A stretch of 48,037 nt of DNA from an uncultured Candidatus Saccharibacteria bacterium (GCA_964364285.1 CAYIKZ010000005.1:1-48037); one strand, 5' to 3'; shown: positions 1 to 33,637, counted from the stretch's first letter. Translations and numbers: made by a program. Notes: a model not told the origin generated them from the letters alone.

Positions 1-8
1 CCGCTCCA
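1..8 (+). tRNA. possible 3' end of a tRNA (Gly-like ...CCGCTCCA), truncated by the window edge
   Basis: Window opens with CCGCTCCA, a typical tRNA-Gly 3' end, directly before a terminator. Only 8 nt are visible. Confidence 0.3.
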
Positions 9-42
9 AAAAAGAACCCCACTTTTTAGTGGGGTTCTTTTT
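9..42. terminator. bidirectional intrinsic terminator
   Basis: AAAAAGAACCCCACT-TTTT-AGTGGGGTTCTTTTT perfect inverted repeat at the end of nrnA. Confidence 0.85.
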
Positions 43-1006
43 ATTTCTCGTCTATTTTCCAACTGCCATCTTCTTGTTTGATTATCTTTCCTGGTATTTC
101 AAAACCTGATGCTAGTTTGTGTCCCCCGCCTCCGAAAAGATTTGCAAGGAAAGAAACATCCATGTTTTTGTTTTCTTCGCTTCTTAAGCTTCCTTTTACT
201 TGGTTGCCGTCTTGTCTAAGGAAGAGCGCGAATTTAATTCCCGGTATTTTGTTTAGTGTTTCAACGAATCCTTCAAAAGTATCATTTGATACTTCTCCAA
301 GTTGATCTAAGTCTTCTTGTGTTACAACGCTTATCGCAACCTTGTCATCATTTAGTAGTCTTGTGTTTTCAATTGCTTTAGCCCAGGCTTTTAGAGAGTT
401 TAAGTCTTTGCTTTGATATGTTGATTCATATATTTTGTCGATTCTTGCTCCATATTTCATTAACTCACCAGCAGCAATTAAGGTTGATGGCTGAGTATTG
501 GAGTGCATGAAAGAACCTGTGTCTGTAAACATTCCGGTTAAAAGACATTTTGCAATATCACTGTTGAATTTGATGTCTAGGTATTTAAAAAAATCGTAAA
601 CTAATTCTGCGACTGAAGATTTTTGCGCGTCTACTAAATTAACTGTTCCATACATTTGATTATCTGGGTGGTGGTCAATGTTTAGTATTGGTAGTGTTGA
701 GTTAATTATGGCATCGAAGCCAGCTCTTGTTTTTTTGCCACAGCCGAAAAGGATTACTCCGTCATAGAATTCGTTTGTTACTGGATTTGGGAGTTCTGAA
801 AGGATTAAGTTTTGTCTTGGAAGGAATTGGAGTCCTGAAGGAACTCCGCCATCTGCAACTAGTGTTGCTTGTTTGTTCATGGGTTCTAAGATAATGGACA
901 TTGCAAGCATTGAACCTCCATCATCTCCGTCTGTTCTTGCGTGAGATGCCATTAGGAAACGATTTTTGTCTGTTATGAATTTTTTTGCTTGTTCAAAGTT
1001 ATTCAT
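41..1006 (-). CDS. nrnA: DHH/DHHA1 phosphoesterase (NrnA-like oligoribonuclease/pAp phosphatase)
   Basis: Motifs HARTDGDD, IDHH, TDTGSF and GGGGHKLASG; lies downstream of rbfA; start moved to the ATG at 1006. Confidence 0.88.
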   Translation of the reverse strand: MNNFEQAKKFITDKNRFLMASHARTDGDDGGSMLAMSIILEPMNKQATLVADGGVPSGLQFLPRQNLILSELPNPVTNEFYDGVILFGCGKKTRAGFDAIINSTLPILNIDHHPDNQMYGTVNLVDAQKSSVAELVYDFFKYLDIKFNSDIAKCLLTGMFTDTGSFMHSNTQPSTLIAAGELMKYGARIDKIYESTYQSKDLNSLKAWAKAIENTRLLNDDKVAISVVTQEDLDQLGEVSNDTFEGFVETLNKIPGIKFALFLRQDGNQVKGSLRSEENKNMDVSFLANLFGGGGHKLASGFEIPGKIIKQEDGSWKIDEK

Positions 1007-1370
1007 TGGTTTCTTCTCTTTCTTTTTCAATCTCGTGGAAGATGTTGCTGATGTGTTCGGCGTATCTTGCGCTTGTGTCTAGATGAAATGATATTCTAGG
1101 GACAATCTTAGTTTCAACGTGTCTGTTTAGTTCACCTTGTATATCGTAAAGGTTTTTCTTTAGTAATTCTAATATATGTTTATCGTTTCCATTTACTATT
1201 GTGATCCATATTTTTGCCCAGCGCATATCTCTGGAAGTCTGAACTTTTGATATTGTGACTATGCTTTTGCTGTTTTTAAAGTAAGGTAAAAGTATTACTC
1301 CTAATAGCCTTTGGATTAAGGAGTTTATCTTTTCTATACGGTTAGTCTTTTTTTTGGGTGGGAATTGCAT
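999..1370 (-). CDS. rbfA: ribosome-binding factor A
   Basis: RIEKINSLIQ, VTISKVQTSRDMRWAKIWI, VPRISFHLD; follows infB. Confidence 0.88.
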   Translation of the reverse strand: MQFPPKKKTNRIEKINSLIQRLLGVILLPYFKNSKSIVTISKVQTSRDMRWAKIWITIVNGNDKHILELLKKNLYDIQGELNRHVETKIVPRISFHLDTSARYAEHISNIFHEIEKEREETNE

Positions 1371-1378
1371 GGGTTTTT

Positions 1379-1400
1379 AAAAGTCCTGCAAGCAGGACTT
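1379..1400 (-). terminator. hairpin or weak terminator between infB and rbfA
   Basis: AAGTCCTGC-AA-GCAGGACTT inverted repeat with a short U-run on the - strand. Confidence 0.5.
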
Positions 1401-3339
1401 ATTTATTAGAAATGAATTCTTTTGCTTTGAGTTTTTCTTCGAAGGACTCAATGACATCCCCTTCAACAATCTTTGTTCCGGAGAGTTTAACCTTCATGCC
1501 GAATTCATCCCCGCTGTTTACTTCTTTTGCGGCTGTTTTGCTTTGTTGTAACTCAAGGATTTCACCACGTCCTGCTTCTTCCCCGTTTCTTATGACTGCG
1601 ATTTCTCCGGATTTTTTAAGCATCCCTTGTTCAACACGGCCTCCAACAATCATGGTGTTTTTTTCTGTCATGAAGACTTTGAGAATCTTTGCTTTTCCAA
1701 ATGTTGTTTTTATTAATTCAGGAGAGAGCATTTTAACAACAGCAGTTGTTACGTTTTCAATTAATTCATAGATGATATCGTACATATCAATGGTTACTTT
1801 TTGTTGTTTTGCAAGACCAAGCGCTTTGCTGTTTGCTTTGGTGTTAAAACCAATGATTGTTGCTTTTGATGTTGATGCTAATGTAACGTCGTTTTCGTTT
1901 ATTTCCCCAGCTCCTTCTGCAATGACGTTTAGTGTTACTTCGTCGTTTTTAAGTTTGTCTAACGATTGTTTGATTGCTTCTAAAGAACCCAAGACATCTG
2001 TTTTTATAATCAGGTTTAAGGTTTTGCTTCCTGCTTCCACTTTTATTCTTTGGTTTTGAGTTATTCTTCTTACTCTTTCTTTTCTTTGAATTTGATAAGC
2101 AATTTGTTTTGCTTCCTCTAGTGTTTCTCTTGTTGAAAGAATGTCTCCGGTTTGAGGAACATCTGAAAGCCCTGAAATCTGAACAGGAGTTGAAGGTAAT
2201 ACTTCTTTGATCTTTTTGCCGTGCTCGTCTTCTAATGCCCTTACTCTTCCGAAAGTTCCACCAATTGTGACAATGTCCCCTATCTTTAGTTGTCCGTTTT
2301 GAATGATGACTGTTGCAACAGGGCCTTTTCCTTGTGAAAGGTGTGATTCAATAACTGTGCCCAGGGTTTTTCCATTTGGGTTTGCTCTGAAGTTTTCAAC
2401 TTCAGCGGTTAGCAAAACCATTTCTAAGAGTTCATCAATTCCTTGGCCTGTTTTTGCAGAGATTGGTACTGCGATTGTTTTACCACCCCAGTCTTCAGTT
2501 AAAACACCATGCTCAGCTAGCTCTTGTTTAGCTCGCATTATGTTTGCCCCCTCTTTATCAATCTTGTTGATAGCAACAATTAAAGGAGTGTTTGTGAATT
2601 TTGCTCTGTTTATGACTTCAATGGTTTGAGGTTTAACTCCGTCATCAGCCGCTATTACTAAGATGATGATATCTGTAACGTTTGCTCCTCTAGCACGCAT
2701 TTCTGAGAAGGCTTCGTGTCCTGGAGTATCTAGTATTGTTATTGGTTTGTTGTTCTTTTTAACTTGGTAGGCACCAATATGTTGTGTGATTGCTCCTGCT
2801 TCTCCTGCAACAACGTCTGTTTTTCTTATGTAGTCAATTAAAGAAGTTTTACCATGGTCAACGTGACCCATGATTGCGATAATTGGCGCTCTTGGTTTTA
2901 ATGACGCTTCGTCTTCTTTTTTTAACATGTCAGCAAGAGAACTTGCTCCTAGGTCAGCATCAGTTTGAGTTTTTTCTTCTTCAGGGTTGAATCCAAGTTC
3001 TTCCGCAACGATTGCAGCTGTGTCGTAATCTATCTCTTCATTGATGTTTGCCATGACTCCGTTTTTTAGTAGGGTTTTTATTACCTCTTGAACAGACAAA
3101 CCCAAAAGATCAACGTAGTCTTTTACTTTGATGAATGTCGGTAGTTTTATATCTTTCCTTACTTTTGGAGTTGTATCAACTATTTTTTGTTTTGGAAGTA
3201 GCGCATCTAAGATTTGTCGAGCTAAGTAGTTGTCTATTTTTCTTGCTCTTGGAGACAATCTAATACCTGCTTCGGCAACTTTTTGGCGAAGCTCTTTTTC
3301 TTTTAGATTTAGTTGTTGTGAGATTGAACTTAAATCCAT
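1399..3339 (-). CDS. infB: translation initiation factor IF-2 (short N-terminus)
   Basis: [16 protein letters not shown] and NKID GTPase motifs plus IF2 C-terminal domains. Confidence 0.97.
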
Positions 3340-3348
3340 AACTTGTGT

Positions 3349-3377
3349 AGTATACGGATTTTCTTAAGAAAAATCAA
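3349..3377 (-). promoter_or_regulatory. sigma70-type promoter of infB (near-leaderless)
   Basis: TTGATT-17nt-TATACT on the - strand; the -10 ends 9 nt before the ATG. Confidence 0.6.
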
Positions 3378-3471
3378 GTTCGCGATATTTAAAATGCTCT
3401 TTTGAAGGAGGATGAAAACTTTAGTATGTTCAGAAATTTTGTTCAAAAACAAAAGAGGATATTTTTGTATA

Positions 3472-4317
3472 TTAAAATGTTCTGTTTTTACCAACAATCA
3501 TTCTTAATTTTTGCGCAGTAATTGTAACTACTGATGGAATCCTTGCGACTTCATTTCCATCCACCGTTATTTTGTATCCTCTTGGTTCTAAGAATTCAAT
3601 CTGTTTGCAGCGGATTGCGGTTGCTCCTGGAATTTTTTCGTAGCATCCGCTTTCTATTTCTTGTTTGTATCTTGCTGCTGTAAATCTTGATAGTTTTTCT
3701 ATCATCACAATATCTAAATTACCATCTTGTGGGTTTCCGATTGGACCACCAGCGCACATTTCTGTTCCTCTTGTGTTTATAATTAGAGCTCCCATTATCT
3801 TTGAGCTTATGGTGTATGAATCATCTATGCGCATTTTTAAGTCTATAGTGCTTCCTGCGAACAGTCTCATTGAAGCCATGAATCCCATTGGTTTGTTTGT
3901 TTGTTCCCCTACTCCTAATTCAAGATAGCTCAGGAAGTAGCTGTCATTAATTTTTGCTAGGTCTAGTTTTTCTATACGTCTGCTGGCAATTGTTTTAACG
4001 CAGGTTTGAAGATCTGTCATTCCTAGGATTCTTCCTAGTTGCGTGTCTTTTGGAAAAGGAATGAAACCCAAAGTAAAATCACGATCCTTGGTTGCGACAA
4101 GCATCTGGCTAAATGTTTCATCTGTTCCGCAAGCAACAAGAGTCTTTACTCCTCGACTTGCCGCAGTATCAACTAAGTCTTGCATTAATCGCAGTGGAGT
4201 GATTCGAGCCATTTCACCACTGACATTGAATTCTGTTAGTAAGCTTTGTAGTTCAGCTTGTTGACGTTCAAAGTTTTTTTGCGGAATGTTATGTGGATCA
4301 AGAATGTAATAGTACAT
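3472..4317 (-). CDS. diacylglycerol kinase family protein (YegS/DAGK-like, degenerate)
   Basis: LVACGTDETF (GGDGT-like), LGFIP, NPQDGNLDIV, TVDGNE. Confidence 0.75.
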   Translation of the reverse strand: MYYYILDPHNIPQKNFERQQAELQSLLTEFNVSGEMARITPLRLMQDLVDTAASRGVKTLVACGTDETFSQMLVATKDRDFTLGFIPFPKDTQLGRILGMTDLQTCVKTIASRRIEKLDLAKINDSYFLSYLELGVGEQTNKPMGFMASMRLFAGSTIDLKMRIDDSYTISSKIMGALIINTRGTEMCAGGPIGNPQDGNLDIVMIEKLSRFTAARYKQEIESGCYEKIPGATAIRCKQIEFLEPRGYKITVDGNEVARIPSVVTITAQKLRMIVGKNRTF

Positions 4318-4332
4318 CTAGTTAACAGTCCT

Positions 4333-4722
4333 TTATTTTTTCTTTGTTGCGTTCTCCTCAATTGGTTCAATGATACCGCCGTTAGCGTCTTTCATTGTGC
4401 ATTTACCTGCAAAGTAAGCACCTTCTTCTACTTGTAGTGTTCCGCAGGACATATCTCCTACTAAACGACCGGTTTTACCTAATACCAAAGCTCCTGAAAC
4501 CTTAACGTTTCCTTGGACAACTCCTGATATTATTGCGTTTTCTGCTTCTACGTCAGCAGAAATTTTTGCGCTTTCTCCCACAAAAAGGTTCTGGGAAGTT
4601 TTTACTTTTCCAGTAACAGTTCCGTCGATTCTTAGGTTACCCTGGCTTTTTAAGTCTCCATCAATCTTTACTGATGGTCCGACTATGCTCTCTCCGTTTT
4701 GTAATCCTTCTTTTTTATCCAT
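4333..4722 (-). CDS. bactofilin (polymer-forming cytoskeletal protein)
   Basis: SIVGPSVKIDGDLKSQGNLRIDGTVTG ... LQVEEGAYFAGKCTM beta-helix pattern. Confidence 0.9.
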   Translation of the reverse strand: MDKKEGLQNGESIVGPSVKIDGDLKSQGNLRIDGTVTGKVKTSQNLFVGESAKISADVEAENAIISGVVQGNVKVSGALVLGKTGRLVGDMSCGTLQVEEGAYFAGKCTMKDANGGIIEPIEENATKKK

Positions 4723-4729
4723 ATGTTTT

Positions 4730-5197
4730 CTAGTTAATTATTTTGGATTCTTTAATTGCTTGTTCTTCTTCTTTTGTGAGTGTAAACTCACTTTTGCTTT
4801 TTATTATTGGTTTTGCGTAAATTCTGTTTGCTTCTCTACCGTGCATTGAAGTTATCACAACTCCATTGTTGTGATCATCAAGCAGTGCCATTGAAAAGCT
4901 TAGGTTGCCTCCGTCATCAGCAAAAGGGTTGTACCTTACCATTCCAATTTTTTGGATTGAGTATTTTTGCTGTTTACGTAAGTCAGCAATTGCTTCCTCT
5001 AGTATGTCACTTTGTTTTGTCAGCTCATTTATTTTCTTACTCTGAGCAATTATGAACTGCTCAAGGTTCGAAGCTTCTTTGCCTGTAAAAAAAGCTTTTG
5101 CAGTTTTTCTGAAACGCAAAAGCATAACAATAGCAAATATTGCTGCGATTAAACTTCCCCCAGCGACAATGAGGCTTACTAGCTCCAAATTATTCAT
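4730..5197 (-). CDS. DUF4446 family membrane-anchored protein
   Basis: N-terminal TM segment, coiled coil, then KIGMVRYNPF..GGNLSFSMALLD..NGVVITSMHGRE..RIYAKP; start moved to 5197. Confidence 0.8.
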   Translation of the reverse strand: MNNLELVSLIVAGGSLIAAIFAIVMLLRFRKTAKAFFTGKEASNLEQFIIAQSKKINELTKQSDILEEAIADLRKQQKYSIQKIGMVRYNPFADDGGNLSFSMALLDDHNNGVVITSMHGREANRIYAKPIIKSKSEFTLTKEEEQAIKESKIIN

Positions 5198-5266
5198 AGG
5201 CAAAGTCATAATACAATGAATATGCTCTTGCCGCAAACCCAGTCCCCCGTGCTATACTTTATGCAT

Positions 5267-5419
5267 ATGCAAGAACAAGAATACGAATTAATAAAAAAAG
5301 ATTTGTACAAAGTGTTGATTTTGAATGCTTTGTATTTAGGCGCTATTTTGGTTCTGTATTTTACAGACCAAAAAACTCATTATCTGCAAAACTGGTTTGC
5401 TAAAATTTTGCACTTCTAG
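5267..5419 (+). CDS. small single-pass membrane protein
   Basis: 50-aa ORF with one TM segment; -10 TATACT lies 8 nt upstream; 5 nt before the next gene. Confidence 0.6.
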   Translation: MQEQEYELIKKDLYKVLILNALYLGAILVLYFTDQKTHYLQNWFAKILHF

Positions 5420-5424
5420 TTTTT

Positions 5425-6687
5425 ATGGGAGTTGTAAAAGAAATTAAATGCCAGGATTGCGGGCCAGTACCAATTCATCATGGTCTTTCTAAGGCCATTT
5501 TGATTATTGACTGGTTTTCAACACCATTTAACAAGTTTTCAATTGGATTAACTCGTTTAATCTCAAAGGTTTTTAATGGTTTTGGGATTGATGATATTGG
5601 GTATATTTTTTGGTTGTTAAGTAAAGTTGGCTTAGCAAAGGTTAAGTATGAGCCGGATGATTTGAATTCTGACCGAGCAAGGTGTATTTGGGAGGCTGCA
5701 AACAAAAGAGGGATTAAGGTTAAAGAAATACGAGCTTTTGGAAGGACTTTAGAGCTTTTTGTTGCTGAATATGATGGTAAAAAGCTCCTTTTTGAAGCAT
5801 TACCAAGGCCAAAGGGTCCTCGTTCTAAAGGGTATTATTGGATGGACAACAAGGCAAAGATGAGAACTGAGTTTATGAAAGCTGGGATTCCAGTTGCTTT
5901 TGGAGATGTTGCTTTTACATTTAAAGGAGCAAAAAAAGTTTTAGACAGAGTTAAGTCTTTGCATAGCGAAGCGCTTGTTTCAGGAAAACCATCTGGCAGT
6001 GGTTTAGTTATTACTAAGCCACATATTGGTTCTAGAAGCAGACATACAAATATTCACTTATTAACTGATCAGGAATTAATGAGAGGATTTAAGATTGCAA
6101 AAAAACTCTCCCCTTTTGTTATTGTAGAGCAAGAGTTAAGTGGTATGGTTCATCGAGCGGCTGTTTTAGGAGGAAAGCTGGTTGCTGTTTTGCGTCGTGA
6201 ACCACCGTATGTAATTGGAGATGGAGTTAGAAATGTTAAAGAGTTGATTGAGGAAGAAAACAGGAATCCAAAAAGACAAGGTCCATATTTCCATCAAATT
6301 CCAATTGACGAACAAACAGAAGCAGAGCTTGCTCGTTTAGGTTTGTCTTATACAACCATCCCTGCTTCAGGAGATATGGTTATTGTTAGAAACAATATTG
6401 GTAGAAGTTCAGGTGGGTCTAATTCTGATGTTACTGATTTAGTGCATCCTGACAACAAAGTTTTGTTTGAAAAGGTTGCTGTGGTAATTGGAGACTCCAT
6501 CATTGGTATTGATTTCATAATCGAAGACATATCAAAGTCCTGGAAAGAACAATACCCTTGCGGAGTTATTGAATGTAACAGTGTGCCGTTTTTAGATTTG
6601 CATCACTTCCCTCTTCGTGGAAATGTTGTTGATACGTCTGGTGCTTTATGGGATATTGTTTGGCCAGAAGCTAAGGTTGTTCTTTAA
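5425..6687 (+). CDS. ATP-grasp ligase resembling the cyanophycin synthetase/GshAB ATP-grasp domain
   Basis: RREPPYVIGDGVRNVKELIEEEN..R, GIDFIIEDIS, VIECNSVP; no Mur-ligase domain. Confidence 0.8.
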   Translation: MGVVKEIKCQDCGPVPIHHGLSKAILIIDWFSTPFNKFSIGLTRLISKVFNGFGIDDIGYIFWLLSKVGLAKVKYEPDDLNSDRARCIWEAANKRGIKVKEIRAFGRTLELFVAEYDGKKLLFEALPRPKGPRSKGYYWMDNKAKMRTEFMKAGIPVAFGDVAFTFKGAKKVLDRVKSLHSEALVSGKPSGSGLVITKPHIGSRSRHTNIHLLTDQELMRGFKIAKKLSPFVIVEQELSGMVHRAAVLGGKLVAVLRREPPYVIGDGVRNVKELIEEENRNPKRQGPYFHQIPIDEQTEAELARLGLSYTTIPASGDMVIVRNNIGRSSGGSNSDVTDLVHPDNKVLFEKVAVVIGDSIIGIDFIIEDISKSWKEQYPCGVIECNSVPFLDLHHFPLRGNVVDTSGALWDIVWPEAKVVL

Positions 6688-7259
6688 TCGCTGAAACTTT
6701 TTTCAAAGGTTTCAGGATCAATGTATAGTTTTGTTTTTATACCCAGGTTTACAGCAACTTGGGTGTTTTCAATTTCATCATCCCAGAACTCAATGTTTTC
6801 TGGTTCTATGTTTAACTTTTTTATTATTTCTTCAAAGAATTCTTGCTCTGCTTTTACATATCCAAGATCACAAGAGAAAAACATTCCATCGAAATGACCT
6901 TGTAATACGTCTGTGATGTATTTTGCTCTGTATTTTTCTTGATCAGCGGTCAGATAGCATTTGAAGCCCTTTTTGCGTAAATGATCAATGATATCAAGGA
7001 TTTTTGTGTTTTTAATTACATCTGATGTAAACCAAAGGTTGAGGAAATCTTCGACAGTCCCATCCCATTTCCATTTCGGTAAGTATGGTTTTAATTGTTC
7101 TTTGAGATCAGCTTTCCCTGTTCGGCAGATTCTAAAATCATTGATGAAGAATTCTGTAATATTTTTTAAAGGCACTCCGTATTTTTCAGAGTACATTTCA
7201 CTGAAGTATTTTGGTCTTGTTATTACAAGACCGTCTGCGTCAATTAAAAGTGTTTTCAT
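6684..7259 (-). CDS. HAD-superfamily hydrolase
   Basis: LLIDADGLV motif I, SCDLGYVK, FWDD motif. Confidence 0.85.
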   Translation of the reverse strand: MKTLLIDADGLVITRPKYFSEMYSEKYGVPLKNITEFFINDFRICRTGKADLKEQLKPYLPKWKWDGTVEDFLNLWFTSDVIKNTKILDIIDHLRKKGFKCYLTADQEKYRAKYITDVLQGHFDGMFFSCDLGYVKAEQEFFEEIIKKLNIEPENIEFWDDEIENTQVAVNLGIKTKLYIDPETFEKSFSD

Positions 7260-7264
7260 ATATT

Positions 7265-7338
7265 TGGTGGACCTAGGCGGAATTGAACCGCCGTCTGAGC
7301 AATGCGAATGCCCTGTTCTACCACTGAACCATAGGCCC
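7265..7338 (-). tRNA. tRNA-Ala(CGC)
   Basis: GGGCCTA/TAGGTCC acceptor stem with G3:U70; anticodon arm GGGCA-TTCGCAT-TGCTC; GTTCAATTC T-arm; encoded CCA. Confidence 0.95.
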
Positions 7339-8624
7339 TAGTCTGAGGTTTGTCCTAGAATCATACCAATCAAAAGCCATAACAACAACTGGGTTTGTTG
7401 GAGTGTGTAGAAATAATGGTCAAAGAACATTAAGAAAATCATTGCTACGAACGCTGAAGTTAAAGCAATGCTGTATATTAATTGTTCGCCTTCTGTTTTT
7501 TCGATTTGATGCATCCCCTTTTTCAATATTGAGGCGAAAAGAACAGAGATTAGTATTAAACCAACAATTCCTGTTTCACATGCAACCTCAAGGAAGAAAT
7601 TATGCGGAGGTTGAACTTGCCATGACTCAGTGGAATTAAGCTGTTTGCTCATTTCCGGGATCATATTCCCTATTCCAACTCCAAAGATTGGATGTTCAGA
7701 GAAGATTTTTAATCCAGTTGTATTGTAAAGAGTTCTGTTGTACACAGTTGGCGCTGTATTTGTGCGAGCATTAAGGAATGGAAAAAGAATAACTATTGAT
7801 AAGATAGTTGTTGATAATATGGTGATTAGTAGTTTTTTGTATTCTAGTTTTGTTTTTTTAATTAGGAGAATAACGATTAGAGCAAGGGATATATATAGAG
7901 CGAGTAGGCCAGAGCGTGAAAACGTTAGGTAATTCCCTATCATCATTATTACTAGAGCAAATCCATAGAAAATCTTTTGTTTGTTTTTATTTTCTTGAAC
8001 AAACAAATATATGGCTGTTGCACATGTAACAATCAGGAAAGCAGACAACTGGTTTGGATGAGCAAAGGTTCCATAAGCTCTAATGAACTTTTCTCCATCA
8101 AGATCTATTTTCGCAACCCCGTCTATATATTTTCCTATTATCTGTTCTCCAAAGATCCTTAATCCAAGTGAGTGTTGCACGAGAAACTGACCAAGAGCTA
8201 TCAAGCTTTGGAACACCCCGGCTATTACTAAAGATATGCTGATGAAGCGTCTGTAGCTTGCTTCACGTGATACATTTAAGGCAAAAATGGCTAAGATAAG
8301 CCATTCTAGGGTTTTTATACCCCAATACCAGTCATTTACACCACGTGGTGAGATTATAAGCAGGGAAAAGAGGGTACTCAAGGCAATTAAGCCAAAAATC
8401 CAGTATTTATTGAAGTTTTTTGAAATTTTGCCAGTGAATATAGCCCAAAATAGGGCAATAACTAGGATGATATCTGATAAATACAGGGATATTACCAAAT
8501 ATTCAGAGAACTGTCCGTTTAATGTTGAAGAAAGATCAAAGAAAATATGCCTTTTTTGAAAGGGGAGTGTGAAAATCAGAAGAAATATCAGGGTTTTAAG
8601 GATTTTATCAGATGTTAGTTTCAT
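7338..8624 (-). CDS. O-antigen ligase (Wzy_C/WaaL) family membrane protein
   Basis: RAYGTFAHPNQL, LTFSRSG, HPIFGVGIGN, QPPHNFFL..ETGIVG; multiple TM segments. Confidence 0.88.
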   Translation of the reverse strand: MKLTSDKILKTLIFLLIFTLPFQKRHIFFDLSSTLNGQFSEYLVISLYLSDIILVIALFWAIFTGKISKNFNKYWIFGLIALSTLFSLLIISPRGVNDWYWGIKTLEWLILAIFALNVSREASYRRFISISLVIAGVFQSLIALGQFLVQHSLGLRIFGEQIIGKYIDGVAKIDLDGEKFIRAYGTFAHPNQLSAFLIVTCATAIYLFVQENKNKQKIFYGFALVIMMIGNYLTFSRSGLLALYISLALIVILLIKKTKLEYKKLLITILSTTILSIVILFPFLNARTNTAPTVYNRTLYNTTGLKIFSEHPIFGVGIGNMIPEMSKQLNSTESWQVQPPHNFFLEVACETGIVGLILISVLFASILKKGMHQIEKTEGEQLIYSIALTSAFVAMIFLMFFDHYFYTLQQTQLLLWLLIGMILGQTSD

Positions 8625-8632
8625 GTGTAACG
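7572..8632. repeat. cluster of five parS-like 16-bp palindromes (7572, 8016, 8173, 8259, 8617)
   Basis: TGTTTCACATGCAACC, TGTTGCACATGTAACA, TGTTGCACGAGAAACT, TGCTTCACGTGATACA and AGTTTCATGTGTAACG match TGTTTCACGTGAAACA at 13, 13, 13, 14 and 12 of 16 positions. Confidence 0.65.
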
Positions 8633-8768
8633 AAATACTTGATTTATTGGTGATTTTATTGTCTAATACTTGATTTATATATCAATCTATGTTCTTTTCA
8701 TAATTATATGTTAGCTAGACGCAATAACCAAATACAGATAATATACCTAGGTAAATAGCGCGTTTTTT

Positions 8769-8845
8769 GCCCTCGTAGCTCAGTGGATTAGAGCGGTTCC
8801 GTCCTAAGGAAAAGGCCGTAGGTTCGATTCCTACCGAGGGCACCA
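8769..8845 (+). tRNA. tRNA-Arg(CCT)
   Basis: GCCCTCG/CGAGGGC acceptor stem; anticodon loop GTCCTAA; GGTTCGATTCC T-arm; CCA. Confidence 0.93.
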
Positions 8846-8852
8846 TAATTTA

Positions 8853-8926
8853 GGGCCCATAGTTCAGTGGTAGAACGCGTCCATGGCATGGATGAGGTCG
8901 GAGTCCGATTCTCCGTGGGTCCACCA
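8853..8926 (+). tRNA. tRNA-Ala(GGC)
   Basis: GGGCCCA/TGGGTCC stem with G3:U70; CGTCC-ATGGCAT-GGATG anticodon arm; variant T-loop TCCGATT; CCA. Confidence 0.92.
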
Positions 8927-10495: not shown

Positions 10496-11065
10496 ATGAA
10501 CCAAGAACTTAATGTGCCAACTAGAACCTCGCTCCCAAATCTTAATACCCCTACTCCCACCAAAAAAAATGGCATATTGATATTGATTGGAGTTATTATA
10601 TTTTTGGGTGCTGGACTCTTTATTTTTTTATATTTATTTCTAGCGCTTTTTGGCGCAGGCATGGCTGATAATGGCACTAAAGCATTTGGTGAAATTTGGT
10701 CACAATTTCGGGTACTTATATATGCGCTTGCTGGTTTGGGTATTGCTGGATTGTATTTGATAGTTAGGGGTACGAGCAATGTGATAATATCACCAAGTCA
10801 AGAAAAGCATAGTTTGCTCAAAATATTTGCAAAGGTGATTTTATCCTTTATTTTCATAATACCAACATGGGTGATTGAAAATCATTACCCTATCCCTTCT
10901 GGCGATATTGGTGGCTTTTTCTTAATCTTAATACTACCAATAAACTGGATTGCATACTACATGGCACTGGATGCAAATATATCCTTAAAAAAAAGAGTCC
11001 TCTGGATTATTATTATTTTCTTAATTACCTGGCCTCTTTTGATTCTAGCATCTTACAAGTTCTAA
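10496..11065 (+). CDS. hypothetical multi-pass membrane protein
   Basis: 189-aa ORF with about five hydrophobic segments; no family recognised. Confidence 0.7.
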   Translation: MNQELNVPTRTSLPNLNTPTPTKKNGILILIGVIIFLGAGLFIFLYLFLALFGAGMADNGTKAFGEIWSQFRVLIYALAGLGIAGLYLIVRGTSNVIISPSQEKHSLLKIFAKVILSFIFIIPTWVIENHYPIPSGDIGGFFLILILPINWIAYYMALDANISLKKRVLWIIIIFLITWPLLILASYKF

Positions 11066-24555: not shown

Positions 24556-25419
24556 ATGAAAAAACTTTTTTCAATCCTATTCTTCGTCGCGATAGCAACA
24601 ATGCCAATAATGGCTTTAGCATCTTTTGATCCACAATGTCCTGGAACAGAAAAGTCTTTGGGATTACTCGCCCCTCTTTTTCATACGAAAATTTGTAGCC
24701 TTAATGAACTAGCATTATTTGCAGTTAATTTTCTTTTAAGTATTATCGCTGTCATCTCAGTCCTCTTTGTTGTTATAGGAGGCTTTAGGTATGTTACTTC
24801 AAATGGAAATGAAGAAGCAGCCTCAAAAGGTAGAGCAACAATTACTAACGCCATAATTGGTTTAGTAATAGCAATGCTTTCATATACAATAATTCGGGTT
24901 TCTGTTAACACGTTTTCTAATAGCTTTAATCCAGAGGCTTCAAGTCAAACACAAAGTCAGACTCAATCCCAATCTCAAACTAAAACAACAAATTCAAACA
25001 ATAATACTCAAGCATCATACTCTAACCTTGTTTCTGGAATTCATTTAACAGGGAAAGCAGACGGGGAATTGATAGTTAACGCAAGTGGTTCAGTTAAAGA
25101 TATACAAGCGACCTGTCCTAATTTTGTTGGAGCAACAGTGAAAGGATCCGCAATTGTTACACATTCTGTGTTGGATGCGCATAACACAAAGCTTTTTGAT
25201 ATGAAGCCTCAAATCGTAGATGGTATGTCTATAAACGGTGATTCTTTTTCAGCTGTTTTAAACTGGGCTGCTGGTTTCTCAGAACCATTGATACGTAATG
25301 GTGAGACTGACTCCTCAGTAGTTTTGCACCTAGAATATGACCCAGGAGCAGGTTGTTCAAAGATAGAGATGGATAAAACATATAATTCAAGGGAATTAAT
25401 TGGTTCAGGCGGTATTTAA
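24556..25419 (+). CDS. pilin-like protein with a C-terminal extension
   Basis: IGGFRYVTSNGNEEAASKGRATITNAIIG core, Ser/Gln/Thr linker, C-terminal domain with a Cys pair. Confidence 0.75.
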   Translation: MKKLFSILFFVAIATMPIMALASFDPQCPGTEKSLGLLAPLFHTKICSLNELALFAVNFLLSIIAVISVLFVVIGGFRYVTSNGNEEAASKGRATITNAIIGLVIAMLSYTIIRVSVNTFSNSFNPEASSQTQSQTQSQSQTKTTNSNNNTQASYSNLVSGIHLTGKADGELIVNASGSVKDIQATCPNFVGATVKGSAIVTHSVLDAHNTKLFDMKPQIVDGMSINGDSFSAVLNWAAGFSEPLIRNGETDSSVVLHLEYDPGAGCSKIEMDKTYNSRELIGSGGI

Positions 25420-25483
25420 CAAGACTGTTTTCCTTTTACTAATAATTATTGTATAATTTAAGACATGGAAGGGGGTGAGAAAT

Positions 25484-25897
25484 TTGAAACTAAGCAAAAT
25501 TAATTTCCTAAAAGTTGGCGAGGTAATATTAGCTTTAACATTGGTACTAGCACCAGTAGCTTTTTCTTTAGCTGCTACAATATATCAGCCAGATTGTAGC
25601 TCATTAGGTGGTGTTCGTTGTGATTCTACAAATACAGGAATTAACGACATTATCATAAAGGTATTGAATATCTTGTTGGGAGTAGCTTTCTTGGTTGCCG
25701 TATTATTCTTAGTTATTGGCGGTTTCCGATACATCACCTCAGCAGGTAACGAAGAGGTTGCAGGTAAAGGAAGAGCGACAATCATTAATGCCCTAATCGG
25801 TGTTGTGGTAATTATTCTTTCATACGTAATAGTCCAGGTGGTAGCAAGAACAGTTACAACTACAGGAAATACTACAGGAACTCCAACTCCTACCTAG
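25484..25897 (+). CDS. VirB2/TrbC-type pilin (possible major subunit)
   Basis: IGGFRYITSAGNEEVAGKGRATIINALIG core; own -10 TATAAT at 25452; strong SD GGGGGTGA favours the TTG start at 25484 over GTG at 25475. Confidence 0.8.
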   Translation: MKLSKINFLKVGEVILALTLVLAPVAFSLAATIYQPDCSSLGGVRCDSTNTGINDIIIKVLNILLGVAFLVAVLFLVIGGFRYITSAGNEEVAGKGRATIINALIGVVVIILSYVIVQVVARTVTTTGNTTGTPTPT

Positions 25898-25936
25898 TTA
25901 ATTTAGATTATTCTTTTAAGAGAGAGAGGTGAAAAA

Positions 25937-26404
25937 ATGAAAAAAAAGATTTTAACATTAGCTTTCGCATTAATCTTGGGTGGAACAAGTCTTTTTGCTT
26001 TTTCACCTCTGATTCCAGAAGTCTCTGCAGCCGCATCTGACCCAAGCATTTGTGGAATGACGGGTAAAGGTGTTTTGCAAGAAGGGACTATTTTAGTACC
26101 AGATCCTAAAACTGGATTATGTATTCCAATGAAAGCCGGGGATGTAAACAGACCTGACACTGTAAACACTTTGTTGATTAGGATCATAAACATAATCCTT
26201 TCAATTTCAGCGAGCTTTGCTATATTGTTCGTTGTTATAGGTGGATTTAGATACATTACCTCAAACGGTAATGAAGAAGTTGCAGGTAAGGGCAGACAAA
26301 CTCTGGTTAATGCAATCATAGGTTTAGTTATAATAATCTTGGCGTATACGATCGTTCGTATTGCTGTTAATACCACAAGTAGTGGTGGATTCTTTGGCTT
26401 TTAA
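25937..26404 (+). CDS. VirB2/TrbC-type pilin
   Basis: IGGFRYITSNGNEEVAGKGRQTLVNAIIG core; SD GAGGTGA. Confidence 0.8.
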   Translation: MKKKILTLAFALILGGTSLFAFSPLIPEVSAAASDPSICGMTGKGVLQEGTILVPDPKTGLCIPMKAGDVNRPDTVNTLLIRIINIILSISASFAILFVVIGGFRYITSNGNEEVAGKGRQTLVNAIIGLVIIILAYTIVRIAVNTTSSGGFFGF

Positions 26405-31000: not shown

Positions 31001-33637
31001 ATGTATTTAAAAAGGTTAGAAATTCAGGGCTTCAAGTCTTTTGCAAACAAGACCACTTTAGAGTTTGAAAAGGGCATTACTGCTGTTGTGGGACCAAACG
31101 GGTCAGGTAAATCAAATGTTGCAGATGCAATTCGTTGGGTCTTAGGAGAGCAGAGCTTAAAACAACTTCGCGGCAAAAAAAGCGAGGACGTCATTTTTGC
31201 TGGCTCTGAAAAAAAACATAAAATGTCGTTTGCAACAGTAAGTGTTACTTTTGACAACAGTGATAAACGTATTCCTTTGGATTACTCTGAAGTTTCCATT
31301 TCCAGGAGCATAGATCGAAGTGGCGAGAGCGATTACATGATAAACGGAAACAAGGTCCGTTTGTTAGATGTCATTGATCTTGTTTTAAAATCAAACATTG
31401 GAACATCTCGGCACACAGTTATTGGTCAGGGAACAATTGATCAAATGGTTTTAGCAGGACCTTCTGAAGTTAAAAATTTAATAGATGAAGCAAGTGGTGT
31501 TAAAACATATTACATCCGAAGAGAAAAAACTCTTAAGCGTTTAGAACAAACAGCGCAGAACTTAATGCGTGTTCGAGACTTGTTAAAGGAAATTGAACCA
31601 AGGTTAAAATCATTGCGTAGACAAGCAAAGCGCATGGAAGAAAGAACAGAGATTGAATCAGAGTTAAAAGTTTTTCAAACAGAATTCTTTTCTGGGAAAT
31701 ACTGGCGTATACAAGAATCATTGCAAGAACTTGTTTCTAAGATTGATGGTTTAGAAAAACAAAGAACAGAGTTAGAAAGTGAAATATCAAACCACCGTGC
31801 AAACTTAGACAAAAACGAAGGTGACAATAAAGCAGAAGTTTTGGCATACCAGCAGATACAGGGTGAGATAAAGAGAATGGTGGATAAGAAAAACAAGATT
31901 CTTGAAGATGCTGCAATGATTAGGGGAAAGCTTAATGCAGAAAAATCAGTAGGTGTTGCTTTGGACAGCAAAGCCTTGGGTCTTGAAAAGAACAACCTTG
32001 AACACCAAAAGAATACTTTAACCGCAGAAATAGAAAGGGCTACTTCAGAGAAAAAAGGGATTATAGCAGAGTTAGAAAAACATCATCAAATTTTTGATGA
32101 AATTTCTAAAAAGCTTTTAGATATTCAACAAATCATTGATAATCCAGAGAACCTTAATTTCCATGAACTTTCAGAGGATATAGAAATGTTGGATCGTAAG
32201 TTCGATGAGTTCTATCAAAACCTTGAGCGTGCTTCAGACGTTTCTCTAATAATCTCTTTTGCTCAGGAATTTAAAAGTCATCTTTCTAAATTTAAACAAA
32301 AGACAACTCATTTTGCGCAAAACCCATTTGTTAATTTTGAAAAACAAAGAAAAATACTTTCAGATATATTAACTCAAAAAGATAGAATATCCCAGGAACT
32401 AAATAACTTTGAATTAAAGAAGTCAAAAGTAGGAATAACATTAGAATATTCAGAAGCAGAACTTTCTAAGGTTGAACAAAAACTTTTGCATCTAAACTTA
32501 GAACTTCAAAAAGCTGGTGCTACTAGCACAGATCAATACTTTGAACAGTTAATGTCCCAAGAAAAAGAGTTGAACACTGAGCTACTAAATCTTGGAAAAG
32601 AAATTTCTGTTTTAGAGCAGAAAATAACTAGCTACCATCAAAAAGAACAAAGCAAGAAATCAGAGATCTTAGACGAAGAACGTGCATTAAGAAGTAAACA
32701 AGATCATCTTTCAAAGTTAAGAGATCAGATTTCGCTCTTGCAGATTGAAAAAGCAAAGCTAGATACTCAAAAAGAGAATGTTGTTTCAGAAGCAAAGTTT
32801 GCTTTAAATCCTGAAGGCTTTGCGGAGATAGAAAAGAAAAAGATTCAATCAAGCACAAATAGCTTAGAGGAAAAGATTCATAAACTTCAAAATCAACTCA
32901 GCATGATTGGTGGAATAGACGAGTTGACTCTAAAAGAATACGAAGAAACAGAACAGCGCTACGGTTTCTTAAGTGGACAAGTTCAGGACTTAGAAAAAGG
33001 AATTGCTGATTTAAGATCAGTAATAGAAGAGTTAGATGAATACATTAAAAAACAGTTTGATGATTCATTCAACAGAATCAATGAAAAGTTCGAGAGTTAC
33101 TTCCGTATTCTTTTTAACGGTGGACGAGCATATCTAAGCACAATCCGTGCTAAAGAAGAGAAAGCAAATCAAGAAGCAGAGGAAGAAGCGATCTCTGAAG
33201 AAACTGGAGATACAGAAGAAACAACGAAATTAAGACCTGAAGAAAAGTTGGTTGCTAGGTACGAGAAAGGATCAGATGATGTTGTTGGGATTGATATAAA
33301 AGCGACACCACCAGGGAAAAAACTCGCAAGCATTTCTGCTCTTTCTGGGGGAGAGCGTTCTTTAACCTCAATAGCTTTGCTTTGTGCACTCCTTTCTTGT
33401 TTCCCATCACCGTTTGTAATGCTTGATGAGGTAGATGCGGCTTTAGATGAAGCAAATACAATCCGTTTTGCTCAGATATTGGGAACACTTGCACACAGCA
33501 CCCAATTTGTTACTGTTACTCATAACCGAGAAACAATGAAACAAGGACACACACTTTACGGTGTGACTATGGGGGATGACGGTGTATCTAAGATTCTCTC
33601 AATTAAAATCGAACAAGCAACAGTATTTGCTAAATAA
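31001..33637 (+). CDS. smc: SMC-family ATPase, short form
   Basis: QGFKSF, GPNGSGKSN, LSGGE, LDEVDAALD and VTH motifs; long coiled coils. Confidence 0.9.
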   Translation: MYLKRLEIQGFKSFANKTTLEFEKGITAVVGPNGSGKSNVADAIRWVLGEQSLKQLRGKKSEDVIFAGSEKKHKMSFATVSVTFDNSDKRIPLDYSEVSISRSIDRSGESDYMINGNKVRLLDVIDLVLKSNIGTSRHTVIGQGTIDQMVLAGPSEVKNLIDEASGVKTYYIRREKTLKRLEQTAQNLMRVRDLLKEIEPRLKSLRRQAKRMEERTEIESELKVFQTEFFSGKYWRIQESLQELVSKIDGLEKQRTELESEISNHRANLDKNEGDNKAEVLAYQQIQGEIKRMVDKKNKILEDAAMIRGKLNAEKSVGVALDSKALGLEKNNLEHQKNTLTAEIERATSEKKGIIAELEKHHQIFDEISKKLLDIQQIIDNPENLNFHELSEDIEMLDRKFDEFYQNLERASDVSLIISFAQEFKSHLSKFKQKTTHFAQNPFVNFEKQRKILSDILTQKDRISQELNNFELKKSKVGITLEYSEAELSKVEQKLLHLNLELQKAGATSTDQYFEQLMSQEKELNTELLNLGKEISVLEQKITSYHQKEQSKKSEILDEERALRSKQDHLSKLRDQISLLQIEKAKLDTQKENVVSEAKFALNPEGFAEIEKKKIQSSTNSLEEKIHKLQNQLSMIGGIDELTLKEYEETEQRYGFLSGQVQDLEKGIADLRSVIEELDEYIKKQFDDSFNRINEKFESYFRILFNGGRAYLSTIRAKEEKANQEAEEEAISEETGDTEETTKLRPEEKLVARYEKGSDDVVGIDIKATPPGKKLASISALSGGERSLTSIALLCALLSCFPSPFVMLDEVDAALDEANTIRFAQILGTLAHSTQFVTVTHNRETMKQGHTLYGVTMGDDGVSKILSIKIEQATVFAK

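Follow-up and report, generated by a model that had tools for sequence, protein, structure and literature searches.

Results

The parS-like sites and their host gene

The stretch of DNA analysed here (the window) is the whole of a 48,037-nt contig, C5 (CAYIKZ010000005.1), of a 691,620-bp source genome assembled in 20 contigs (GCA_964364285.1; 98.65% complete, 38% G+C). Our subject is a group of five 16-bp sites in it that resemble parS, the centromere site at which ParB loads, and the gene of the Wzy_C (O-antigen-ligase) family with which they coincide. Throughout, G000 denotes the window's own genome, G001 a congener, other G numbers the genomes of relatives and L numbers individual loci; mismatches are counted against the 16-nt parS consensus, and ranks are those of a genome-wide scan with a position weight matrix (PWM) described below. 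The features concerned are as follows.

7338..8624, minus strand: Wzy_C / O-antigen-ligase-family membrane-protein gene hosting the array, 428 aa, Pfam PF04932
7572..7587, no strand: parS-like site, 3 mismatches (2 with positions 5 and 12 free), read as EVACET, PWM rank 1
8016..8031, no strand: parS-like site, 3 strict mismatches (1 with positions 5 and 12 free), read as IVTCAT, PWM rank 2
8173..8188, no strand: parS-like site with a broken core, CACGAG, 3 mismatches, read as QFLVQH, PWM rank 3
8259..8274, no strand: parS-like site with an intact CACGTG core, 2 mismatches, both in the arms, read as NVSREA, PWM rank 4
8617..8632, no strand: weak parS-like site over the host start codon, 4 mismatches (counted by eye), PWM rank 8

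A first-pass annotation, made from the sequence alone, had described the five 16-mers as matching at 12–14 of 16 positions, and comparison with the consensus agrees, giving 2–4 mismatches (3, 3, 3, 2 and 4 in order of coordinate), or 1–3 when positions 5 and 12 are left free. It had also held that the sites imprint the protein, occur in more than one reading frame and in one case span the start codon; translation confirms EVACET, IVTCAT and NVSREA, two frames are used in G000, and the site at 8617–8632 overlaps the host ATG at 8622–8624. The site at 8259 is the best strict match genome-wide, and that at 8016 is the best once positions 5 and 12 are free, its remaining mismatch being a central G-to-A change; if the relaxed pattern also allows Y/R at the centre, the latter is the one place in the genome that fits it exactly. 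The bare core reported at 8341 is present, but as the hexamer CACGTG alone (7 mismatches over 16 nt, counted by eye); it is a few codons away from a column of the protein alignment in which 8 of 12 orthologues have a site, and may be either a relic or a chance occurrence. The spacer directly upstream of the Wzy_C start codon, beside the start-codon site, is filled by a tandem pair of 31-nt direct repeats (8634–8695; 74% identity), and scans of 7200–8900 for promoters, terminators and repeats turned up no feature relevant to the array that exceeded shuffles.

The host protein matches PF04932 at 77.1 bits (cut-off 31.7) and has nine hydrophobic segments, as a polytopic membrane protein of this family should; it reaches none of the NCBIfam equivalog cut-offs and so takes no equivalog name. 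Because all 12 aligned orthologues are intact open reading frames (ORFs) of 428–599 aa with 29 invariant residues, we regard the host as a working gene. Of the public relatives of the protein (the best 80 of 565), the closest are labelled Candidatus Doudnabacteria or Patescibacteria. The G005 orthologue (L029, G005:C2, 9442–10741) matches in two frames, with read-through giving 5 stops, and a frameshift or an assembly error in that array-bearing gene is possible.

The sites are rare and clustered

Within the window, 4 matches occur at ≤3 mismatches against a shuffle mean of 0.36 (0 of 100 shuffles reach 4), and strict and relaxed pattern scans alike find no comparable cluster elsewhere in it, as had been noticed at first sight. 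The entire 691,620 bp of the genome contain 8 such matches, of which 4 fall inside 703 bp (7572–8274), and the single 2-mismatch match of the genome is a member of this cluster; about 3 × 10−7 groupings of 4 in 703 bp would be expected, and the sites are thus both rare and clustered, as parS sites should be. When positions 5 and 12 are freed, the host gene holds four of the nine genome matches at ≤2 mismatches, together with the only 1-mismatch match.

A PWM was trained on 30 sites of relatives from outside the own genus (training scores 20.5–28.4 bits), 9 of which have central CACATG variants, at position 8 or 9; such variants are frequent in relatives with rich arrays. Run over G000, it ranks the host gene's sites 1, 2, 3, 4 and 8, so that the genome-wide scan suggested as a check on the first-pass annotation has its top four matches all in the host gene; the best two window sites score 20.5 and 19.4 bits, at and just below the floor of the training range. 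Two Wzy_C paralogues elsewhere in G000 have no PWM match above 8 bits in either. A parS-like 16-mer inside dnaA (G000:C9:14518–14533; 3 strict mismatches, PWM 10.3 bits) is probably there by chance.

Arrays in relatives

A search of G000 and 30 relatives with the pattern at ≤1 mismatch returned 32 distinct sites in 14 genomes, against 3 matches for the reversed pattern that served as control. Tight arrays are among them: five sites in ~0.9 kb in G016 and again in G025, four each in G011 and G019, and three in G017. By tblastn with the host protein, the relatives' arrays fall in the orthologous gene, at 23–40% protein identity, and in 20-kb contexts 30 of the 32 sites lie inside the Wzy_C orthologue or ≤100 bp upstream of it; the conservation in orthologues that a centromere in this gene should display is thus found. 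At ≤2 mismatches, the 12 context loci hold 52 sites in 18,955 bp of gene versus 3 in 194,882 bp of flank.

The remaining 2 of the 32 sites are on G009:C33, a contaminant-like contig. Three good parS stand there (L030, 2122–3156) beside gidA and a methyltransferase gene, with no Wzy_C, and the same contig has a gene for an OmpA protein that bears a Por_Secre_tail domain; we rejected it as a Wzy_C-free array of a relative, as GidA and the OmpA/Por_Secre_tail protein look like contamination from a different phylum. The true G009 orthologue, on C92, carries sites of its own. At L140 (G006:C19, 1412–1516), three parS-like sites occupy ~100 bp of ORF-free DNA by a serine recombinase gene with no Wzy_C nearby, and may be a mobile-element centromere or a relocated remnant.

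In a wider sample of Patescibacteria, consisting of the loci of the best 80 of 565 relatives of the host protein, 54 sites at ≤1 mismatch fall in 145 kb of gene window versus 5 in 730 kb of flank, and all 5 of these are just downstream of the gene, in two loci. At least one site is borne by 26 of these 80 loci and at least two by 11. The site-bearing loci include some labelled Moraniibacteriota or Parcubacteria; those among the 80 labelled Peregrinibacteria, Gracilibacteria or Microgenomates have no site at ≤1 mismatch. A phylum sample (150 evenly chosen genomes plus G000) has perfect parS in 32 of its 151 genomes. Thirteen of 30 loci around perfect sites have a Wzy_C ORF, with sites inside the ORF in 10 and a single site ~170 bp outside it in the other 3. 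Four loci of this sample (L176–L179, in G104, G121, G162 and G142) have 5–12 perfect parS in 0.7–1.2 kb without an ORF of at least 100 aa and without Wzy_C; an alternative genetic code was rejected as the reason for these ORF-free arrays, as reading TGA as sense returns the same 13 Wzy_C loci.

Selection on the DNA and turnover of sites

The host genes of G000 and G001 (72% protein identity) are identical at 69 of 72 nucleotides in sites and at 850 of 1209 outside them (p = 1.3 × 10−7). Where the amino acid is the same, the codon is identical in 21 of 21 cases within sites versus 140 of 277 outside (p = 2.3 × 10−6), so the synonymous-site constraint that was to be looked for at the palindromes is present. 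The sites at 7572, 8173 and 8259 are identical in G001 at 16 of 16 nucleotides, and those at 8016 and 8617 at 14 of 16. Because three of the four internal 16-mers are fully identical, as against 3% of all host-gene 16-mers, the degenerate versions of the sites are themselves, by this comparison, being kept.

In the protein alignment, sites recur at columns 1, 139/140, 223, 306/307, 447, 462, 516, and 557. At columns 139/140 the site is read as FHVK or FHVQ in five orthologues and, one base over, as VS(R/H)(E/Q)T in three; columns 306/307 are likewise used in shifted reading frames among orthologues. The 52 in-gene sites are split over the three frames 30:18:4. Frame 0, with 4 sites, is the one in which the consensus would create an in-frame TGA, and all 4 escape this stop, three of them via a G at position 12. 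Synonymous identity and the use of the same column in different frames show conservation as DNA beyond coding need, as expected of parS, and point to sites that are kept by selection on DNA rather than on the peptide.

Individual sites differ in how widely they are shared. The start-codon site (8617) corresponds to column 1, and gene-start sites with 0, 1 and 3 mismatches are found in L033, L039 and L036; site 8173 is at column 223, where a site at ≤3 mismatches is also present in six orthologues from other families; and site 8259, at column 171, is common to one relative (L034). For 8617 and 8173, the positional counterparts in other families include good sites, among them perfect and 1-mismatch ones. 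Sites 8016 (column 297) and 7572 (column 535) are confined to the own genus (g1), which has lost the sites that are widespread at columns 139 and 306. As judged from the alignment, individual sites are gained and lost while the array persists.

Position relative to the origin

In 5 of 5 relatives, dnaA is on the contig of the array, 23–37 kb away, and the cumulative GC-skew minimum adjoins dnaA in G004, G005 and G029. G004:C7 shows collinearity with contigs C9 (with dnaA) and C5 of G000, which are separated by a gap of ~1.4 kb, and across this contig gap the array of G000 would lie ~31 kb (4–5% of the genome) from dnaA. The dnaA distance in relatives, the skew and the collinearity together place the array close to the origin, as is expected of parS.

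The Wzy_C/tRNA boundary is the exact point at which gene strand and AT skew switch. We considered an oriC at this gene-orientation switch by the host gene and rejected it, as the GC-skew minimum lies instead beside dnaA. DnaA boxes in the host gene found no support either: one 1-mismatch match to the 9-nt consensus occurs there, the genome background is 0.23 per kb, and the densest clusters are on other contigs. In the block from dnaA to the array (G004:C7, 20–51 kb, L042–L043; window 1–8700), genes are mostly on the minus strand and the GC skew is already positive; this origin-adjacent block of ~30 kb seems to be transcribed against replication.

ParB, SMC and ParA

G000 encodes a ParB on contig C1 (ParB_N match, 122 bits) that carries the CTP-binding motifs GERRFRA and ENIQR and, further on, GKSR...AN...GHAR. 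The parS-contacting residues listed in PMC7383237 (Q, G, K, S, R, N, G, R) are present in it, by their spacing from GKSR. With ParB_N, both CTP motifs and a parS-type helix-turn-helix, G000 thus has what a cognate ParB for parS should be. The window itself contains one further gene of the system.

31001..33637, plus strand: SMC gene, 878 aa, Pfam SMC_N 230.9 bits

The genes for ScpA and ScpB are also present in G000, on contig C15, and SMC is presumed to be the client loaded at ParB-parS. For ParA, we found no AAA_31 match and no CbiA match above cut-off in the 98.65% complete G000, and AAA_31 is above cut-off in 2 of the 31 genomes of the order sample. Because ParA was not found, the gene content points to a system of ParB, parS and SMC only, not a full ParABS. 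The call to locate parAB and oriC thus had a divided outcome: parB is present and dnaA is 23–37 kb off in all five relatives, but ParA was not found and parB is not nearby.

Neighbouring genes

Two genes beyond the host gene's 3' end had been singled out as suggestive neighbours.

4730..5236, minus strand: DUF4446 gene, Pfam PF14584, 149 bits; N-terminal hydrophobic helix, then a conserved C-terminal domain
4333..4722, minus strand: bactofilin gene, Pfam PF04519, 98 bits

Of the relatives' context loci, 12 contain the Wzy_C orthologue, and in 11 of these the two genes stand side by side 0.5–3 kb after it; in this their standing as neighbours is upheld. Nothing, however, links either to ParB. 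DUF4446 is absent from all 14 control genomes, and we found no mention of it in the literature searched. Prediction of a ParB-DUF4446 complex gave a score of 0.00 in both runs, which says nothing on binding either way.

Two tRNA-Ala genes, inverted with respect to each other, flank the host gene at 7265–7338 (minus strand) and 8853–8926 (plus strand), with anticodons cgc and ggc. An ORF of 420 aa at 5425–6687 (plus strand) is a conserved neighbour of the array in the own genus and family; it has no Pfam match, and in NCBIfam it matches the ATP-grasp portion of cyanophycin synthetase in part, far under the cut-offs. At 10496–11065 and 24556–26404 lie four small ORFs with T4SS_pilin-type domains, of which three are consecutive.

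Discussion

The reading we favour, at a probability of about 80%, is that the five palindromes are a chromosomal parS array, and thus a centromere, written into the coding sequence of a Wzy_C-family gene in a Candidatus Doudnabacteria-like member of the Patescibacteria. That the host gene doubles as the chromosome's centromere had been put forward from the window alone, and comparison now supports it through the PWM, the orthologues, the synonymous constraint, parB and dnaA; by the same genome comparisons, the array is an old inherited feature of the Wzy_C gene across the order and beyond. In the mechanism we propose, CTP-bound ParB, encoded far off on contig C1, would load at the sites of the array and slide from them onto flanking DNA, and would recruit SMC-ScpAB to the origin-proximal region, where sister origins would be organised and separated. 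Because ParA was not found, we suggest that this segregation would proceed without it, as in the Streptococcus pneumoniae system. The sites in the own genus have drifted from the consensus, with 1–3 mismatches outside the two free positions, and their binding, whether of single sites or of the set, is probably weaker than that of the perfect arrays in sister families.

Several observations weigh against a centromere in this gene. Most chromosomes have parS flanking parAB; here parB is on a contig other than that of the array, and is far away in 5 of 5 relatives, and in G019, which has about ten sites, no ParB was found with a protein query. Among the 80 Patescibacteria loci (best of 565), 54 have a Wzy_C relative without a site at ≤1 mismatch, and in the phylum sample 17 of the 30 loci around perfect parS have no Wzy_C ORF. 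Own-family genomes hold 0–3 sites each at ≤1 mismatch to the relaxed pattern, where the reversed control matches 5 of 10 genomes, so that the signal there stands little above noise. G000 has no perfect parS, its CACGTG core is intact only at 8259, and changes in the core reduce ParB affinity in Pseudomonas aeruginosa according to PMC4368675, which bears on the window sites with altered cores. Because of the 17 loci without Wzy_C, we take the pairing of array and gene to be limited to certain clades, although on the genomes compared it is old and widespread.

The imperfection of the sites could also mean that the array is a decaying relic, an ancestral centromere that is eroding in the own genus or family, where ParB would load poorly and segregation would be achieved by other means. 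The absence of a perfect site, the alteration of four of the five cores, the disappearance from the own genus of two widespread sites (columns 139 and 306), and the 0–3 good sites of own-family genomes versus 4–10 in sister families are all in keeping with erosion. Against decay, three of the four internal 16-mers are unchanged between G000 and G001 (3% of the gene's 16-mers are) and the synonymous codons within sites agree in 21 of 21 cases; moreover, the sites at columns 297 and 535, found in the own genus only, point to turnover rather than to plain loss, and ParB is intact. We therefore regard decay as unlikely.

Alternatively, one could envision the sites mainly as operators, with ParB or another palindrome-binding protein repressing or tuning both Wzy_C and the tRNA unit divergent from it, and with segregation a secondary matter. 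The site over the start codon in G000 and the gene-start sites in 3 other orthologues would suit such a role, and transcriptional effects of ParB near parS are described for other species in the review PMC7022226. Most sites, on the other hand, lie deep in the ORF and are spread over 1 kb, an odd layout for operators; the motif is the universal parS, and the sites of each relative at ≤1 mismatch are all at this one locus, which is near dnaA in genomes equipped with SMC-ScpAB. A primarily regulatory function is thus highly improbable. The weakest alternative, that the sites are a by-product of repeated peptide motifs or codon bias with no function as DNA, has in its favour that they imprint the protein (as VSRET, FHVK and CFTWN types of peptide), and it can be set aside almost entirely: against 4 observed sites, codon-order shuffles of the host gene give a mean of 0.009 and synonymous redraws from genomic codon usage a mean of 0.21 (of 1000 draws in either test, none reaches 4), one and the same column is occupied in different frames, no sites occur in the two Wzy_C paralogues, one site (L035) is upstream of the ORF and sites run downstream of the gene in two loci, and the identity of synonymous codons in sites (21 of 21) contradicts it as well.

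If the array is a centromere, its pairing with this gene might itself be functional, and no frozen accident, in ultra-small Patescibacteria that have no ParA: coupled transcription, translation and membrane insertion of the host protein would tether ParB-parS, and with it the origin, to the membrane, or ParB clamps would gate the gene. We consider this doubtful. The membrane-anchored DUF4446 protein and bactofilin might assist in such tethering. Were it true, it would offer a ParA-independent way to separate sister origins and, conversely, clamps of ParB in the ORF would tie the expression of a glycan-handling enzyme to the cell cycle.

Under the centromere reading, a whole array would have resided in a single protein-coding gene from a time before the order split into its families, and in some other Patescibacteria as well, with the same bases serving twice, encoding a working membrane protein and keeping a 16-bp palindrome readable by ParB. 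It would thus be a natural system for the study of overlapping codes, in which frames shift, free positions absorb the avoidance of stop codons, and sites turn over while the array persists; G000 would represent the degenerate end of the range, with imperfect sites still under clear purifying selection. Where assemblies of uncultured bacteria are fragmented, the array could mark the region of the origin, and for work on chromosome segregation in organisms that have no ParA and cannot grow alone it would provide an object that can be cloned and tested.

The literature searched yielded no paper on a whole parS array that stays with a single gene family over deep divergences, and nothing on parS together with ParB in Patescibacteria or Parcubacteria; the known systems of comparison come from elsewhere. 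In Myxococcus xanthus, bactofilin forms a scaffold for ParABS. The bactofilin gene as a conserved neighbour of the centromere region is a point of likeness, and the differences are that ParA was not found in G000 and that no evidence links bactofilin or DUF4446 to ParB. A resemblance to Noc, of the Noc/NBS nucleoid-occlusion system, goes as far as 256 bits for the G000 ParB on the NCBIfam Noc model, under its 315-bit cut-off; where Noc has Q and R, according to PMC7383237, the G000 protein has R and G, and the DNA motif is parS, not NBS.

Nearer in composition is Streptococcus pneumoniae, described in PMC7022226 as having an incomplete Par system with an orphan parB, four parS near oriC and no parA, and as one in which ParB is tied to capsule synthesis through CpsD and RocS. 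As there, ParB, parS and SMC are present in G000 and ParA was not found. The phylum and the cell biology are different, and the tie to a glycan gene in G000 consists, unlike that of the pneumococcus, of DNA sites inside the gene only.

Origin-proximal clusters of parS that act with ParB and SMC are established in Bacillus subtilis, Pseudomonas aeruginosa, Caulobacter, Streptomyces, and Corynebacterium. The arrays of G000 and its relatives share with these classic clusters the 16-bp palindrome consensus, which the sites of G000 match imperfectly, and the grouping of several sites no more than a few percent of the genome away from dnaA/oriC, and G000 has a ParB with CTP-binding motifs and parS-contacting residues, as classic systems do. 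Sites in coding sequence are not peculiar to them, 9 of the 10 parS of P. aeruginosa PAO1 being predicted to lie in coding sequence in PMC4368675. Unlike in the classic clusters, parB is not adjacent, the sites of G000 are all imperfect, sites show positional homology among orthologues with all three frames in use, and the whole array is in one ORF, a pairing that persists at 23–40% protein identity. Thus, parS, ParB, SMC and single intragenic parS sites are already known, and what is unusual is a whole array within one gene.

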